NCBI GenBank assembly: GCA_964493715.1
Contig: CAZBPC010000030.1
Span: 1 to 32,862, forward strand
Reading direction: 5' to 3'
DNA length: 32,862 nucleotides
DNA from: an uncultured archaeon
Lineage (GTDB): Archaea; Asgardarchaeota; Lokiarchaeia; Sigyniarchaeales; SOKP01
The translations under genes were made by a program, and so were the position numbers. How positions within the stretch are numbered: position 1 is the stretch's first letter; every line of letters starts with the position of its first letter. This document shows, one piece after another, positions 1 through 23,949 of the stretch. The notes below the pieces were generated by a model that ran no database searches, was not told where the DNA came from, and saw nothing but the letters and a program-made list of their open reading frames with translations.

Positions 1-145
1 AATTGATTAACCCCTCCTCTTTAAATTGCTCTAAAACAGGAGTTAATAATTTACACGGTCCACACCATTCAGAAGATAAATTAACAATAAGCTTGCCCTC
101 AGTAGGGCCATCAATTCCGTATTTTTTTAAATCATCAATTTTCAT
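1..145 (-). CDS. trxA: Thioredoxin, 3'-truncated by the window edge and absent from the ORF track
   Basis: Manual translation from ATG at 145: MKIDDLKKYGIDGPTEGKLIVNLSSEWCGPCKLLTPVLEQFKEEGLIN..., with the canonical WCGPC active site. Confidence 0.9.
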   Translation of the reverse strand, partial: MKIDDLKKYGIDGPTEGKLIVNLSSEWCGPCKLLTPVLEQFKEEGLIN

Positions 146-150
146 ATACT

Positions 151-159
151 ACCCTCCTT
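151..159 (-). promoter_or_regulatory. Shine-Dalgarno site for the thioredoxin gene
   Basis: Minus strand reads AAGGAGGGT 5 nt upstream of the ATG at 145. Confidence 0.7.
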
Positions 160-310
160 AACAAATTACATGGTTTTTTTAGCTCATGGAGCAATTCAGA
201 AACCGAACATATTAATATAATCAAACAAAATTAGATATTTAAGGATTATGAATTATCATTCAAAACGAATTAGAATTCATCAGTGGAATTTAATTTTTAA
301 AAAAAAAAGG

Positions 311-865
311 TTAGATTTTTGAACCACAATTTTCGCAAAATTGAGCACTTTCGCGAAGTTGCTGGCCACAATATACACAATAATTTTTATTATTTGTCGG
401 TATAGGGGCTTCTATTTTTTTAGGGGGTGCAATAAAATCATTTGAGACCTTGTATTCAACTCCTTCTCCTAACTCAATTTCTCCACTCTCTGAATTGAAT
501 TTATATTTGACATATCCTTTATCTCGTAGATCAACTAATACTCTTAGTACATCTTTTGGTTTTATTCCTACCTCTAATGCTATGTCTTCTAATTTATGAT
601 TACCTTGAAAATCTCTATCCATTAAAGCAACTCTAACTGCTTTTTGAAATTTCCGATTGGTATTAATTTGTGTAAATCCCCCAATCATTATGAAAAAAGC
701 TGGGATAAAGAGCCAATATCCCCAATAACTTAATCCTATAAAGTCGATTCGGAAAGTCATTAAAATAAGGGAAATCACACCGACAATTAAGAAGACAATA
801 CCTACTCCAAAAGTCTCCATTGGAGCCTCATATTTTTCTTTTGAATAATATCTTTCCTTGACCAT
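311..865 (-). CDS. Membrane protein with 2 TM helices, a winged-helix (PCI-like) domain and a C-terminal zinc ribbon
   Basis: Two hydrophobic N-terminal segments; LEDIALEVGIKPKDVLRVLVDLRDKGYV is wHTH-like; ends in CVYC-x10-CENC. Confidence 0.7.
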   Translation of the reverse strand: MVKERYYSKEKYEAPMETFGVGIVFLIVGVISLILMTFRIDFIGLSYWGYWLFIPAFFIMIGGFTQINTNRKFQKAVRVALMDRDFQGNHKLEDIALEVGIKPKDVLRVLVDLRDKGYVKYKFNSESGEIELGEGVEYKVSNDFIAPPKKIEAPIPTNNKNYCVYCGQQLRESAQFCENCGSKI

Positions 866-11566: not shown

Positions 11567-12085
11567 TTATTCTGTTATTCCTTGTAAACACGCTTTTGCA
11601 ATTGTTTCAAATGCTAATTCTACATTGTCTCCGGTCTTGGCCGAAGTTTCAAGATATTCGCAATTTAATCTGCTTGCTAGATCTTCCGCTTCTGACCTTT
11701 CCACTTGGCGTTCAAGATCAGACTTGTTCCCAATTATTATCATCGGAATGGTTTTTTTGACAGACTTTTTAATACTACTAATCCATCCAGGTAATTTTAA
11801 TAAGGACTGGGGATTTGTTAGATCAAAAACTCCAAGAGCGCCATTACTCCCTTTAAAATAGATAGTTCTTAGCTTCGCGAATTGCTCCTGACCCCCAATA
11901 TCCCATATTAGTAAGCGAACGATAGTGTCCTCCTCCATCTCGACATCTTTAATTAAAAAATTTGATCCAATGGTTTGTTTTAAGTCATTACTAAAATAAT
12001 CCTTTATGTACCTTATTAGTAAGGATGTTTTACCTACGTCTCCGCCGCCGAATAATGTTATTTTGAATTTATATGTATCAGAAAT
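11567..12085 (-). CDS. Rab-like small GTPase, 172 aa, extended upstream of the ORF-track start to a probable ATT start
   Basis: In-frame upstream sequence SDTYKFKITLFGGGDVGKTSL (G1), QTIGSNF (G2), then WDIGGQ (G3), NKSD (G4), ETSAK (G5); no C-terminal prenylation motif; exact start is inferred. Confidence 0.9.
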   Translation of the reverse strand: MSDTYKFKITLFGGGDVGKTSLLIRYIKDYFSNDLKQTIGSNFLIKDVEMEEDTIVRLLIWDIGGQEQFAKLRTIYFKGSNGALGVFDLTNPQSLLKLPGWISSIKKSVKKTIPMIIIGNKSDLERQVERSEAEDLASRLNCEYLETSAKTGDNVELAFETIAKACLQGITE

Positions 12086-13611: not shown

Positions 13612-13733
13612 AGGAATCAGTTTCTATCTACATTCGATTTGTACAAAATTTTGAAATTAAATTAATATTATCTTATTATTTTATACTATTTGAATGTTTA
13701 TATATTTCAAATTTTAACTGCTTGGAGAGTAGC

Positions 13734-14162
13734 ATGAATATTAGAAAGTTTATTGATTTGAGACTAATTGGAATCGTTGGTTCTTGTCTCTTGATTATGT
13801 CTCAATTTTCATCGTGGATTTCTGGATTAACCTTGATCAATATATATTTGATCACGACATCTGTATCAATTGAGGATTCATTTTTGTACCTGTTTCCTTT
13901 AATCAGTGGGATAATTTGTTTTATTGGCACATTTCTTGTCTTATATAAATTGGAGTACAAACTCAATTCAGTAATCATCAACTTTATCGGGTTAGGATTT
14001 TTCTTAATTTTTATATTTAAATTTATACCTAAAGAAGTCCCTTACATCAGTAATCCTGAGATAGGTTTTTATTTTGCGGTTATTGGAGCTCTTTTGATCT
14101 TATTAGATATCTTAAATGTTTTAAAATTGAATAATAATCTTGAGGAAGGGAGTAAAAATTAA
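13734..14162 (+). CDS. 4-TM hypothetical membrane protein
   Basis: ATG at 13734 preceded by GGAG, preferred over TTG 13722; four hydrophobic segments. Confidence 0.7.
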   Translation: MNIRKFIDLRLIGIVGSCLLIMSQFSSWISGLTLINIYLITTSVSIEDSFLYLFPLISGIICFIGTFLVLYKLEYKLNSVIINFIGLGFFLIFIFKFIPKEVPYISNPEIGFYFAVIGALLILLDILNVLKLNNNLEEGSKN

Positions 14163-15036
14163 TACTGATAACAAATCAACGAAAATTAAAGATGGAACGC
14201 CAGATTCGGAATCAAATTTCTACTATGCTTTAGGGCATAAAATAAGAAGAAAAATTATAATGCTAATTGGCATAAATGGTTTTTCTTCATTTACAGAATT
14301 GAAAAAGGAATTAAATGTTAGTACAGGCACAATCTATCACCACCTTGATACACTTTCGACTTTAATCAAGCAAAAAGCAGATAAAAAATACTATCTTACA
14401 GAATTGGGAATACGAGCATATGATTCGATTAGGAACAATATGGGATCTACATCATTTGATATTTCGAAAACAGATTACAACTCATTTCTTCTGAGAGGCT
14501 TGATGCATCTCACACCAAAAAGAATCATAGTTCCCAACAAGAAACCAAATCTTCTTGTTATCATATCTTCTATTATGATTTTAATCTTAGGGGGGATATT
14601 TTGTGCATTAAATGGATTATATCCCTTCTTTTTATTATTTGGGACTATTCCAGAAATGCCCTATGCGCCTCTTTTTAATATCGTTTTCTTTATATTCAAT
14701 TTTTTTGTTTTCTTTTTTATCATTAAAACAATTTGTTGGATTTTTTACAAAAAAAAAGGGAATACAATCGAATTCTTGAACACGTTTGCTATTATTTTTA
14801 TCCCTTCAGTAATGTATCTGATAATTCATTATTTCTTTATAGTTTTAAATATTATTGAATTCACATTTATAGGGATATTAGACAACATAATCATGATATT
14901 ATTCCAAGTTTGGTCACTATGGCTGCTTACATACAGTATAACAACTTATAATAGATTAAAAATTGAAAATTCACTTATAATTTCTTTGCTGTTGCATTAT
15001 GGGGGATTTTCTATTATTTTAATGATATCTATTTAA
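14140..15036 (+). CDS. ArsR-type wHTH fused to a Yip1-like multi-TM domain (start TTG 14140 or ATT 14158)
   Basis: ALGHKIRRKII, SFTELKKELNVSTGTIYHHLDTL, YYLTELG; C-terminal TM bundle with WSLWLLTYSI. Confidence 0.7.
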   Translation: MRKGVKINTDNKSTKIKDGTPDSESNFYYALGHKIRRKIIMLIGINGFSSFTELKKELNVSTGTIYHHLDTLSTLIKQKADKKYYLTELGIRAYDSIRNNMGSTSFDISKTDYNSFLLRGLMHLTPKRIIVPNKKPNLLVIISSIMILILGGIFCALNGLYPFFLLFGTIPEMPYAPLFNIVFFIFNFFVFFFIIKTICWIFYKKKGNTIEFLNTFAIIFIPSVMYLIIHYFFIVLNIIEFTFIGILDNIIMILFQVWSLWLLTYSITTYNRLKIENSLIISLLLHYGGFSIILMISI

Positions 15037-16321: not shown

Positions 16322-16493
16322 CTATCCTTGAAATTGATAAAGCAAGTGGATATTATAAATTTTATAATAGTTTTAAAGTTCCATAAATTATTTTTATGAA
16401 CATAAAAACAAATATAAAGCAAATGATTAGTTTAGTTTTAAAGGGATAAACGAATTATTTTAATTAACTTAGATTTAAAAAAAAAAATTAATT

Positions 16494-17729
16494 ATGCCCA
16501 ATTATTTTCCAGAAGAGGTAATGCAAAGAATTCGTTACCTCCACTTTAAAATTAATCACCTAGATGACGCATTAGGTAAAGAAGAAAGTTTTACTTTGGA
16601 TGATTTAAGTCTAGTATTAGAATATACTAAGATCTTGAATGTTAATTACATGAATGAAAAGCATTCTCAGATCTTAAAAGATTTAGATATCACGCATGTT
16701 TTTCATGATCCCAGTGAAAATAATCGAGAAATAGAAATTAAGGATCTCATGGTTGAATGTGCAAGATCATTATGGGTTATGGCGAGAGCTTACAGCAATC
16801 TTTCTGAAAAGTTCGAAGAAGAAGAGGATTGGGAGAATGCTGTCGTTGCAATGGTAGAATGCAGCAAGATGTATAAAACTGCTGCTTATTTTAGTGCTGC
16901 AAGTACCTATCAAGATGATATTGGTACAACTCTCTCATCTGAGAATTTAGAAATGAACTCTGAAGAAGCGAGAGTTTTAGCTCAAAGTATTGCAGCTCTT
17001 AGGGAAGAAAATAAAAATAACAAATATTTTGCATCAAAATTATATGCTGGGCTTTCACAGCTTTCAAAAAGAATTTTTTATCTTAGAAAACATGATGAAA
17101 AAAAAAAGCAACAGTTAAGGGCTCAATTTCATTATGATATGGGAAAAGCATGCCAACTTAAAGCTCAAGCATCTTTGGATTCTTCAATAACTCCATTAAA
17201 TATGGATAAAATTACTCGCCTTAAACAGAAAGCAAATTTCTATTATGACAAGTCAAAAACTATTTGGAATGAAATGCTTGAAGATTTAACTGATCTTTCA
17301 GGAGAAGAAAAAAACAATCTTAAGGTTAATTTATCTGTCGTTGAAACTTTAATGAAAGAGAATAATGTAGAAATCCTAGATTACGAGGATATAAAAAGAA
17401 TTCAAGATCCCGAACCTATTATTGTAATACCAGAAAATTTGGCTCCATTTGTTCCCAAAAGCACTATTTTTCTTACAAAATTTGTTCCAAAGGATTTAAA
17501 TGTTAAGAGGTTTAAATCTTTCACGCAAAAAAAGCTAGAACAAAAAATACCCTATAGTAAAAAAGAAAAATTGATTGATCAAAAAGCAGGGATAGTTCGA
17601 ACAATTAATGAATTAAAGTTACTACGAGAAAACAATGAAATTACCGTGGAAAAATATGCTGAACTAATGGAAAGATATTCTGTGAAACTTAAAATGATAG
17701 AAACCGCGATAAAAAAATTAGCAAAATAA
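16494..17729 (+). CDS. Alpha-helical protein, candidate Bro1-domain protein with a C-terminal steadiness-box-like hairpin
   Basis: 411-aa ORF; collinear resemblance to recalled ALIX Bro1 motifs (see findings); assigned by eye. Confidence 0.55.
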   Translation: MPNYFPEEVMQRIRYLHFKINHLDDALGKEESFTLDDLSLVLEYTKILNVNYMNEKHSQILKDLDITHVFHDPSENNREIEIKDLMVECARSLWVMARAYSNLSEKFEEEEDWENAVVAMVECSKMYKTAAYFSAASTYQDDIGTTLSSENLEMNSEEARVLAQSIAALREENKNNKYFASKLYAGLSQLSKRIFYLRKHDEKKKQQLRAQFHYDMGKACQLKAQASLDSSITPLNMDKITRLKQKANFYYDKSKTIWNEMLEDLTDLSGEEKNNLKVNLSVVETLMKENNVEILDYEDIKRIQDPEPIIVIPENLAPFVPKSTIFLTKFVPKDLNVKRFKSFTQKKLEQKIPYSKKEKLIDQKAGIVRTINELKLLRENNEITVEKYAELMERYSVKLKMIETAIKKLAK

Positions 17730-22689: not shown

Positions 22690-23949
22690 ATGAAGAAGGA
22701 AAGCATTAAGCAAGAATTAGACGAACAAACAACAGGGCCAGAAGATAAACCAAATAATCACTTAGAAAATGGTTTTAACCAGAAATCCTCAGAATTTGAT
22801 GAATTATTGATTAACAATATGTTAATTGAGAAAATAGATCCACGAGTTTTTAAAACACCAGTCAAACTTACGATTAAAGCCTACACACGTATTATTAGTT
22901 ATGCTTTGAGATACGCTAGTGAGGCGATTTCAGAAAAGAATTGGAGGGAGGTCTATGGTATTCTTATTGGTTCAATTGATAATAACAAGATAGTTATAAT
23001 TAAAGATGCCATCCCCATGGTAGTTGGGGAAAGGGCAGGTGTCAAATATGAAAATAAACAGTACGTTGATATGGCTCAAATTGATGAATCTATCTATGAA
23101 CGCTCAATTCGAGATAAAAAGAATGATTTTATTATTGGTTGGTGGCATACTCATCCAGGATTTGAGTTTAGATTTTCAGATATCGACACGCAAACCCAAC
23201 TTGGTTACCAACTTCCAAATCCACTTGCTATCGCGCTAATCTTTAATCATTGTAAATTAAAATCGAATAAGTTTTTTCTCGGATTAGCAGCATTAAGATT
23301 ATTAAACCCAGAGAAAGGAATGTTTTCTAGCTATGATTACATAAAGTTGGAACTCGAAATAGAACAAGAACAAATGTTAAATGAAGCTCAAAAAATTGTT
23401 AAGGATAATGTTAAAAATCTTCCTAAAATCCTTAAAGAAATTAAATATGTTGACGATATTTTGCGAAAGAAAGCTCTTGCACAGTTACAAAGGAATTTTG
23501 GACTTATATTAGTGCCAAAAAGCGATATAATTATCACAGATAAAGAAAAAGATGCGGAAGAAGACGAGGGTTATTTATATGAATGGAATCCTGAATTTTC
23601 TAAGAAAAGCTTTCGTATTCCTAAATTTAGAGAAAAAATCGAAGAAGAAATCAAAGATTATGAAAAAATTTTACAAAAGATGCTTGAGTTAAACGAACTT
23701 AAAAAATTCGAACAAAAAAAAGATAAATTCAAGAAAAAAGTTCTTGCGAGATTGTCAAGACCAAATGATTGGTTTAACAAACTAAGTTCGGAGTTTACTA
23801 AAAGGATTGAAATCATATATCCTTATTATGATTATTTGGATACTAGTGAGAGAAAAATATTAGAACATTTTGAAAGTAGAAGTTTAGACTATAATAAAAT
23901 TTTAGATTCTCTAAATACCCGAGCGCAATTTAACCTAAGTTTGAAGTGA
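22690..23949 (+). CDS. MPN+/JAMM metalloprotease (Rpn11/CSN5-like) with a long helical C-terminal extension
   Basis: EVYGILIG plus GWWHTHPGFEFRFSDID, an intact E...HxH-x7-S-x2-D motif. Confidence 0.88.
   Translation: MKKESIKQELDEQTTGPEDKPNNHLENGFNQKSSEFDELLINNMLIEKIDPRVFKTPVKLTIKAYTRIISYALRYASEAISEKNWREVYGILIGSIDNNKIVIIKDAIPMVVGERAGVKYENKQYVDMAQIDESIYERSIRDKKNDFIIGWWHTHPGFEFRFSDIDTQTQLGYQLPNPLAIALIFNHCKLKSNKFFLGLAALRLLNPEKGMFSSYDYIKLELEIEQEQMLNEAQKIVKDNVKNLPKILKEIKYVDDILRKKALAQLQRNFGLILVPKSDIIITDKEKDAEEDEGYLYEWNPEFSKKSFRIPKFREKIEEEIKDYEKILQKMLELNELKKFEQKKDKFKKKVLARLSRPNDWFNKLSSEFTKRIEIIYPYYDYLDTSERKILEHFESRSLDYNKILDSLNTRAQFNLSLK

Follow-up and report, generated by a model that had tools for sequence, protein, structure and literature searches.

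The window analyzed here is a stretch of 32,862 nucleotides from an uncultured archaeon (GenBank assembly GCA_964493715.1, contig CAZBPC010000030.1, positions 1 to 32,862 of the forward strand). [quoted passage not shown] Structural modeling predicts, with very little room for doubt, that residues 1–322 have the Bro1 fold, and profile comparisons make it highly probable that the hairpin at residues 356–410 is a diverged steadiness box, homologous to those of the Asgard Vps23/TSG101 and Znr_PH_CC_SB proteins. On balance, a slight preference is given to the view that the gene product is a soluble ESCRT adaptor of two modules, consisting of the Bro1 fold (residues 1–322), a linker (326–354) and the steadiness box (356–410). 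A preliminary description of this DNA had placed a candidate ALIX-like protein at 16494..17450. The start of that feature stands, but its end is not the end of the gene: position 17450 lies at about residue 319, the end of the first domain, and the C-terminal 90 residues with the steadiness-box hairpin lay beyond it. Because of the hairpin, the likely mechanism changes from that of the plain ALIX-like ESCRT-III adaptor proposed earlier.

Bro1 Fold of Residues 1–322

An AlphaFold2 model of the 411-aa protein, built on a 28-sequence alignment, has a mean predicted local distance difference test score (pLDDT) of 87.4 and a predicted template modeling score of 0.75, and pLDDT falls below 50 at residues 326–354 only. 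The model has been compared, using VIA-align and independently of Foldseek, with 48,161 representative chains. Five Bro1 domains were recovered, namely HD-PTP (3rau_A; Z 22.2, 283 aligned, root-mean-square deviation (rmsd) 4.2), ALIX (2oew_A; Z 21.8, 285 aligned, rmsd 4.2), yeast Bro1 (1zb1_B; Z 21.7, 275 aligned, rmsd 3.7), ALIX again (2xs1_A; Z 21.6, 282 aligned, rmsd 4.2) and BROX (3um3_A; Z 20.7, 297 aligned, rmsd 4.5). The best chain of any other fold was NatC, of the tetratricopeptide repeat (TPR) type (7rb3_B; Z 11.6, 199 aligned, rmsd 5.4). Helical repeats can reach a Z of about 13 by arrangement alone, and the gap of about 9 Z units together with coverage of the whole domain therefore places the Bro1 match well past the helical-repeat level. 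Residues 2..321 of the model align with residues 19..346 of ALIX, and the model also aligns with residues 23..345 of yeast Bro1 and 24..348 of HD-PTP. Foldseek against the PDB returned 21 matches at E ≤ 0.001; all 18 that were listed are Bro1 domains (yeast Bro1, BROX, HD-PTP and ALIX), and the three unlisted matches are further chains of the listed entries. The best was 1zb1_A at E 5.3e-6, the listed Bro1 domains ranged from E 5e-6 to 5e-4, and their TM-scores were 0.41–0.56 over 341–395 alignment columns. A feature search of the ESM Atlas placed eukaryotic BRO1 clusters nearest (score 0.85, 177–178 shared features), which is taken as a lead only. The preliminary description had proposed AlphaFold modeling with a structure search as the check on its Bro1-domain claim, and had named a regular TPR solenoid lacking Bro1 preference as the contrary case. 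What was found is a model with a small beta-hairpin that matches Bro1 domains before TPR-like solenoids, at Z 20.7–22.2 for the five Bro1 representatives vs. 11.6.

Secondary structure assigned by DSSP on the model comprises ten long helices, strands at residues 69–72 and 78–81, an extended segment at 301–324, and helices at 356–379 and 385–410. The predicted Bro1-fold domain (residues 1–322), delimited by the AlphaFold2 model, VIA-align and Foldseek, occupies 16494..17459, on the forward strand like the other features of the gene. A Bro1 domain is typically a long, all-helical solenoid resembling TPR proteins, about 320–370 residues in length, known to bear a small beta-sheet around its N-terminal third and to be closed by an extended segment at the C-terminus; in the model a small beta-hairpin (residues 69–81; 16698..16736) lies inside the helical solenoid between helices 57–64 and 85–109. 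The densest run of invariant columns in alignment A2, which reaches sequences as low as 24% identity, is found in helices 149–173 and 177–197 (16938..17084), where L152, E157, R160, Q164, G186, L187 and R193 are invariant and L183 is kept in at least 90% of sequences. Judged by conservation only, these two helices are a candidate partner-binding face. The domain is closed by a conserved extended segment, QDPEPIIVIPENLAPFVPK (residues 304–322; 17403..17459), in which P308, P313, E314, N315 and P321 are invariant in A2. Residues 301–324 have no regular secondary structure in the model (block-mean pLDDT 81–91), and the segment falls inside the range aligned to Bro1 domains.

Support at the level of sequence comes from a distant family member, P0153, which is 24–25% identical to the window protein and matches Pfam BRO1 at E 3.2e-8 and 33.3 bits (cut-off 35.1), with residues 9–182 on profile positions 33–208. 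PF03097 is also its precomputed domain in a large protein database, and its Pfam register agrees with the structural register of the model on ALIX. The preliminary description had compared eight stretches with the Bro1 domain of human ALIX in a colinear register, namely LSLVLEY, ITHVFHDP, LMVECARSLWVMARAYSNLS, MVECSKMYKTAA, LSSENLEMNSEEARVLAQ, FASKL, KITRL and LMKENNVEIL...IQDPEPI. All eight occur in that order in the translation of 16494–17726, and a colinear register fits both the structural alignment on ALIX and the Pfam register of P0153. In addition, L145, a Bro1-only relative from another Asgard class, matches Pfam BRO1 at E 4.9e-4 and 19.5 bits.

Probable Steadiness Box at the C-Terminus

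The Bro1-fold domain is followed by a flexible linker (residues 326–354; 17469..17555), the sole segment with pLDDT below 50, which is poorly conserved and variable in length in A2. The linker leads to a helical hairpin (residues 356–410; 17559..17723) formed by helices 356–379 and 385–410 and assigned to the ESCRT-I core type by structure and profile matches. The best structural matches of residues 349–411 are to the steadiness box of yeast Vps23 (2caz_D; Z 9.6, rmsd 1.2, 58 aligned), followed by 2f66_A and 2p22_A (both Z 9.5) and human TSG101 (6vme_B; Z 8.9).

The assignment was pursued through a protein of the same genome. The open reading frame (ORF) divergent from the ESCRT-IIIB gene on contig C3 ends in a sequence similar to the window hairpin and has been taken as Znr_PH_CC_SB, and the last 110 residues of 30 Znr_PH_CC_SB orthologues were used as a steadiness-box profile. 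The hairpin columns of the family aligned with this profile in hhalign at a probability of 93.3, E 2.6e-7 and a score of 39.8 over 60 columns. Two hundred column shuffles of the steadiness-box profile gave a mean score of 11.0 (standard deviation 2.2, maximum 19.3) and the reversed profile 7.2, while the hairpin against the ESCRT-IIIB profile scored 10.4, the steadiness box against the Bro1 part 13.8 and the steadiness box against the ESCRT-IIIB profile 13.4. Each branch of the family taken alone scored above all 200 shuffles (distant branch 43.3, Loki branch 26.3). An HMMER model of the steadiness box found family members P0150, P0122, P0153 and P0174 at 15.4–19.8 bits, on their C-terminal hairpins. 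In the genome of the window it also found the N-terminal hairpin of Vps28 (15.9 bits) and a 470-aa protein encoded on contig C39 (19.9 bits), over a background of at most 13.0 bits and with 120 ESCRT-IIIB negatives at no more than 1.4 bits. In the reverse direction, the hairpin positions of the family profile matched a 290-aa Asgard protein with the Vps23/TSG101 architecture (UQ_con 6e-19, UEV 5e-7), over the same stretch as its Vps23_core match (E 0.0023, residues 238–282), and also Zn-ribbon/PH/steadiness-box proteins in other Asgard classes.

Further proteins with such hairpins were observed along the way. The 470-aa ORF lies at C39:9095-10504 on the reverse strand, and its residues 408–465 match the steadiness-box model at E 2.3e-4. 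In another Asgard class, L150:1366-2217 and L151:1369-2220 (both reverse strand) encode 284-aa proteins in which CDC48_N and CDC48_2 are joined to a hairpin resembling a steadiness box and, at the C-terminus, a zinc ribbon; no mention of a CDC48_N/steadiness-box architecture was found in the literature examined.

ESCRT Genes and Proposed Function

The genome of the window encodes a B-type ESCRT-III on contig C3 (E 1e-91 to PDB 9fn1_U; Vps20/32/60-like), an A-type ESCRT-III beside Vps4 on contig C24, and Vps28 on contig C26. The window itself is contig C30, and the gene thus stands away from any ESCRT operon, as the preliminary description had said. The B-type ESCRT-III has a conserved tail that ends in KLEDEIEKLRKELE, with an invariant tyrosine in the motif DDLQYISEFD, and this single B-type protein and Vps28 are the candidate partners in the genome.

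ESCRT-III tails are known to be bound by the eukaryotic Bro1 domains investigated to date (ALIX, Bro1p, HD-PTP and BROX); the concave face of a Bro1 domain takes up the C-terminal helix of CHMP4/Snf7-type (B-type) ESCRT-III, and in ALIX and Bro1p the groove at this site is lined by conserved hydrophobic residues. A tentative mechanism can be put forward, to which we give slightly less than even chances. Through its hairpin the protein would enter a hairpin bundle of the ESCRT-I type, together with the Vps28 N-terminal hairpin, with other steadiness-box proteins, or with both, and the amphipathic helix conserved at the C-terminus of the B-type ESCRT-III would be bound by the conserved face of the Bro1 domain. 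ESCRT-III polymerization might then be seeded directly from ESCRT-I without ESCRT-II, the protein amounting to the eukaryotic TSG101-ALIX-CHMP4 route in covalently fused form. Paralogues fused to a helix-hairpin-helix (HhH) domain in sister genomes might do likewise at DNA. A co-fold of the Bro1 domain (residues 1–330, alignment A2) with the ESCRT-IIIB tail (residues 150–216, alignment A3), run without controls, scored 0.00 against a mark of 0.32 with the partner disordered, and is uninformative either way.

Alternative Explanations

At the level of the fold, the protein could be an ordinary TPR-like solenoid that resembles Bro1 by chance or convergence. It is all-helical, its identity to solved Bro1 domains in the structural alignments is 9–15% only, and sequence searches speak against a Bro1 assignment on several counts. 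Against Pfam the window protein reached a best E of 0.086, with no BRO1 or Vps23_core match at E ≤ 10; against NCBIfam the best E was 1.8, and phmmer against the PDB gave a best E of 0.29 with no Bro1 among the matches. No solved Bro1 chain in the PDB was reached by the HMMER family profiles. The profile of alignment A1 gave 21 PDB matches, mainly HhH proteins (NusA, RadA/Rad51), with one ribosomal protein and one designed consensus TPR (CTPR) protein among the rest; that of alignment A2 gave six, the best being a designed CTPR protein at E 0.037; and P0153 alone gave none. Pfam BRO1 is matched by one of the 28 aligned family members, so sequence alone is thin evidence. In none of 398 Asgard genomes does Pfam BRO1 rise above its gathering cut-off of 35.1 bits, and in four it reaches E ≤ 0.001; Asgard Bro1 proteins have thus been missed because sequence profiles are too weak. 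As the PF03097 cut-off is unmet, the window protein is filed under the Bro1 fold or superfamily and not under the Pfam family as modeled. These four sub-threshold matches (L010-L014) aligned to the family at hhalign E ≥ 0.13 and had no steadiness box, and they have been treated as generic helical-repeat proteins. Weak TPR-type matches speak for a solenoid, namely the CTPR protein at E 0.037 and TPR_8 in two of the 28 members at E 0.06 or worse. No TPR family matches the window protein itself. A TPR solenoid is further opposed by the drop of roughly 9 Z units from the Bro1 representatives, five in all, to the best chain of TPR type, by the appearance of designed helical repeats in Foldseek only at E ≥ 7e-3 and TM-scores of about 0.2, by the beta-hairpin, and by the two family members that touch Pfam BRO1, one of them, P0153, in a register that agrees with the structural alignment. 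It is largely refuted and is regarded as very improbable. For the hairpin, the corresponding alternative is a generic dimerization coiled coil, which would leave a free-standing BROX-like adaptor with no ESCRT-I link. The model is matched at Z 8.5–9.3 by many unrelated helical hairpins, and many of them score less than 1 Z unit away from Vps23, so that structure alone does not settle the identity of the steadiness box. With the plain HMMER steadiness-box model the window ORF is missing from the matches at E ≤ 10 and its short form scores low, the hairpin HMMER model does not list Znr_PH_CC_SB, BLASTP of the window protein against Znr_PH_CC_SB gave a best E of 0.34, and hhalign against a single Znr_PH_CC_SB sequence found the right region at E 0.01 and a probability of 4. 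The link is thus made only via profile-profile comparison and the more divergent family members, which likewise weighs against a steadiness box. The failure of Pfam Vps23_core (PF09454; cut-off 26.8 bits) on the window protein also favors the coiled coil, although the same model gives 14.9 bits (E 0.096) for the known steadiness-box protein of the genome and 18.3 bits for the Asgard UEV protein, and is therefore too weak for Asgard sequences. A generic coiled coil is hard to reconcile with a profile-profile score of 39.8 against a shuffle maximum of 19.3 (n = 200), a maximum that each branch also exceeds by itself, with a steadiness-box model that picks up Vps28 and a second steadiness-box protein in this genome at bit scores like those of family members, or with a family profile that finds the Vps23_core region of the UEV protein; we consider it improbable.

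At the level of function, the protein may instead count as a subunit of the ESCRT-I type on account of its steadiness box, with a Bro1-fold domain that binds cargo, a ubiquitin-like mark, the membrane or another regulator and so acts as a cargo or site selector. Makarova et al. have proposed substrate recognition by the other domains of multidomain steadiness-box proteins (Makarova et al., 2024; PMC10936438). The steadiness box is joined to very different heads (UEV, Zn-ribbon/PH and CDC48_N), the Bro1-like domain occurs elsewhere with different tails (a Zn-ribbon in L149, an unknown domain in L145), and the gene is not linked to ESCRT-III. Genes for ESCRT-IIIA, ESCRT-IIIB, Vps4 or Znr_PH_CC_SB were found within 10 kb in none of 80 related loci, and gene context therefore lends no functional support to the adaptor. 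The family was also found in none of the 15 genomes of two sister families of the same order. Since ESCRT itself is common across Asgard archaea, the family does not belong to the ESCRT core. Both results count against an adaptor. The selector is in turn opposed by the ESCRT-III binding of the eukaryotic Bro1 domains noted above, and by the conserved terminal amphipathic helix that the ESCRT-IIIB of this genome has at the matching place. It is considered possible but rather unlikely, and the two-module adaptor is retained as the preferred reading.

Family, Paralogues and Distribution

A word-indexed search returned 725 relatives at E ≤ 0.001. The best 120 of these are 410–417 aa long and 71–100% identical to the window protein, carry no precomputed Pfam domain and, where named, are hypothetical proteins of Lokiarchaeota or Promethearchaeota, with one bacterial label. 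All 80 named relatives come from uncultured metagenome-assembled genomes, mostly labeled Promethearchaeota or Promethearchaeia. An exhaustive search of representatives at 50% identity gave 55 matches. Among the relatives are 14 full-length long forms of 511–767 aa with the 411-aa module at the C-terminus, ten of which start with an HhH domain (PF14520; one weak, E 0.0037) followed by a lysine-rich linker. Three distant forms, P0150, P0153 and P0155, have lengths of about 400 aa and share 24–26% identity with the window protein.

The A2 module profile detects the family in 141 of 398 Asgard genomes (E ≤ 1e-5), including 125 of the 132 genomes of the GTDB family to which the window belongs; of the seven without a match, six are 64–84% complete and one is 93% complete. 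Weaker matches occur in seven other GTDB families. Five of those genomes have been inspected and contain 511-aa relatives that have the Bro1 part only (E 1e-21 to 1e-23), a 371-aa Zn-ribbon form, and hairpin-only matches on other steadiness-box proteins. The 511-aa protein at L145:1333-2865 (forward strand) consists of a Bro1-like domain, an acidic repeat linker and a domain of about 90 aa of no known family, and the 371-aa Bro1-like protein at L149:910-2022 (forward strand) ends in a zinc ribbon or RING-like motif. Many genomes of the window's family have two or three copies, one short form and one or two long HhH forms; the genome of the window has the short form only. In a maximum-likelihood tree of the module, 11 short forms make up one clade (support 100/100), which nests among the long forms when the tree is midpoint-rooted on the branch to the distant forms, and short-form branches measure 0.02–0.17 vs. 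0.19–0.72. The rows were unevenly sampled, and the tree is therefore indicative only.

The long HhH paralogues have a neighborhood of their own. In six of eight loci (L135:9263-11819, L136, L139, L140, L141 and L144), a small membrane protein is encoded directly downstream of the long form (648–681 aa) on the same strand. It is 167–177 aa long, with two N-terminal transmembrane helices and a winged-helix-like cytoplasmic part, and in two of the six loci the ORF as called is 94–103 aa. Upstream lie conserved genes for proteins of about 325 aa (8/8 loci) and about 270 aa (7/8 loci), and none of these three neighbors has a Pfam family. A homologue of the small membrane winged-helix protein (43–47% identical) is encoded in the genome of the window at C8:72388-72933 on the reverse strand, despite no long paralogue having been found there; the last 780 bases of contig C8 beyond it contain no Bro1-like frame.

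Comparison with Known Systems and Earlier Reports

The window protein shares its predicted fold over about 280–300 residues with the eukaryotic Bro1 domains (PF03097) of ALIX/PDCD6IP (2oew, 2xs1, 3c3o), Bro1p (1zb1), HD-PTP/PTPN23 (3rau, 5mk0, 5mk2) and BROX (3r9m, 3um3, 3zxp), with the small beta-hairpin and the extended segment at the domain's end both shared, and its Bro1 part has the size of a single Bro1 domain. Unlike ALIX and Bro1p, it has no V domain (ALIX_LYPXL_bnd) and no proline-rich tail and ends 90 residues past the Bro1 domain; it likewise lacks a phosphatase or CAAX-type tail, and in their place it has the steadiness-box hairpin, a pairing for which the literature examined gave no eukaryotic example. 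Full-length ALIX (2oev) is poorly covered by the model (Foldseek TMt 0.28). The protein is not an ALIX orthologue. Like the ESCRT-I steadiness box (PF09454; 2caz, 2f66, 2p22, 6vme), the hairpin is C-terminal, antiparallel and about 57 residues long. In Vps23-like (UEV) proteins and in Znr_PH_CC_SB (PMC10936438) the steadiness box is joined to UEV or Zn-ribbon/PH domains, whereas here it is joined to a Bro1 fold. The window hairpin also matches a CdvA filament chain (9s9g_A; Z 9.1, 23% identity), within the noise of generic hairpins. The Bro1 part has no homology to CdvA, and the window protein has no CdvA Pfam match. By function, the proposed adaptor may be likened to CdvA of Thermoproteota, the archaeal recruiter of ESCRT-III, which is not itself an ESCRT-III protein and is considered to bring ESCRT-III (CdvB) to its site.

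Reports also exist on Bro1 in Asgard archaea. Makarova et al. have described the Znr_PH_CC_SB architecture in section 6 of their census (PMC10936438) and found no identifiable Bro1/ALIX orthologue in Asgard archaea (Makarova et al., 2024). The terms Bro1, HhH, TPR and steadiness are absent from the supplementary files searched. Eme et al. have claimed Asgard homologues of Bro1 (Eme et al., 2023). In the available part of that source, the four 'Bro1' rows of Table S3 are proteins of 75–180 aa matched to PF18097, which is Vta1_C (a 38-position model), and these rows are therefore not Bro1 domains. More recently, a structural screen entitled 'Prediction of eukaryotic cellular complexity in Asgard archaea using structural modelling' (Nat Microbiol, 2026; PMC12962969) has listed in its Data S3 four representatives, three Loki and one Hel, whose best Swiss-Prot structural match is a fungal BRO1. 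The BRO1 ranges given are residues 177–540, 246–610, 247–613 and 253–574, and the Hel protein has a TIR domain at 14–172. These ranges fit the HhH-fused long paralogues, to which the rows, listed without sequences, may belong. The rows carry no description of a steadiness box, a short form or a distribution, and the main text has no occurrence of Bro1, ALIX, BROX, PDCD6IP or PTPN23. The main text of an October 2026 structural-clustering preprint makes no mention of Asgard Bro1/ALIX proteins, and no account of such a protein came to light when full texts were searched for Bro1 together with Asgard or for ALIX together with Lokiarchaeota. The asCOG identifiers cog.008524, cog.006040 and cog.009760 occur in no main text searched, nor in the Makarova supplements searched. 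Overall, the domain itself is not new, its occurrence in Asgard archaea has been listed but left undescribed, and the combinations Bro1 + steadiness box and HhH + Bro1 + steadiness box are undescribed in the literature searched.

Gene, Host and Neighboring Genes

The ORF list and translation give one ORF at 16494..17729, with an ATG start and the stop codon included, and the start position is common to the homologues in alignment A2. In contigs of a close relative, 19 of the 21 listed differences fall on third codon positions of the 411-aa frame, and the Bro1-fold gene therefore encodes a protein under strong purifying selection. The DNA of the window recurs in metagenomes of salt marsh. In the metatranscriptome run X24, four contigs of 151–214 bases lie inside the ORF and belong to a relative 92–96% identical to the window, the one that supplied the differences counted above; they have not been counted as evidence of transcription because an RNA library can carry DNA and because the contigs are those of the relative, and stretches of the gene that lack RNA cover are given no weight. 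Contigs of the DNA runs X3 and X4 join position 16362 to 16502, skipping 139 bases of upstream intergenic sequence and the first codons, and a loose end shows a variant start region. This (16362-16502) looks like strain variation around the promoter and start.

The host is an Asgard archaeon of the Lokiarchaeia type, and the gene content of the window is archaeal and Asgard-like, with an archaea-specific threonyl-tRNA synthetase editing domain, Alba and PTH2, together with a CTP-dependent riboflavin kinase, a Ras-family GTPase and a JAB/MPN protein. The genes flanking the Bro1-fold gene are syntenic, with an ATP-grasp gene in 64 of 80 loci and a TM158 gene in 59. The JAB/MPN-domain protein (22690-23949, forward strand; 419 aa), possibly of the deubiquitinase type, is encoded 5 kb downstream of the Bro1-fold gene and is part of a syntenic block, in 53 of 80 related loci. 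At 13722-15036 on the forward strand, a 146-aa protein with four transmembrane helices overlaps by 23 bases with a 298-aa protein that has an N-terminal winged helix (DUF7347, E 4.6e-4) and six transmembrane helices, and the two are conserved in 55–56 of 80 related loci. The Ras-family ORF (11567-11938, reverse strand; 122 aa) matches only positions 46–161 of the 162-position Pfam Ras model. Its P-loop part is seemingly missing, and a miscalled start or a truncated gene is possible.

Implications

Among the upstream ESCRT adaptors that are widely conserved, Bro1/ALIX alone has no Asgard orthologue that the most complete census could identify (Makarova et al., 2024), and a confident Bro1 fold in Lokiarchaeia fills that gap. 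The reach of the finding is limited by the concentration of the family in one Lokiarchaeial family and by the BRO1 matches already present in the supplement of the 2026 screen. The fusion poses a cheap biochemical question, that is, whether one archaeal polypeptide bridges ESCRT-I and ESCRT-III, and set-ups for work in vitro on ESCRT-III and ESCRT-I proteins of Asgard archaea already exist (Hatano et al., 2022; Souza et al., 2025). The finding also bears on the share of eukaryotic ESCRT wiring that was in place before eukaryogenesis. A broader scenario can be offered as speculation and is thought rather unlikely to hold. The Bro1/ALIX branch would predate eukaryotes and in Asgard archaea would have been wired to ESCRT-I by the steadiness box, and the eukaryotic, non-covalent TSG101-ALIX-CHMP4 bypass would descend from or replay the fused adaptor. 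The HhH paralogues and the membrane winged-helix protein might tether the adaptor to DNA and membrane, and chromosome position would thereby be coupled to ESCRT-III scission.

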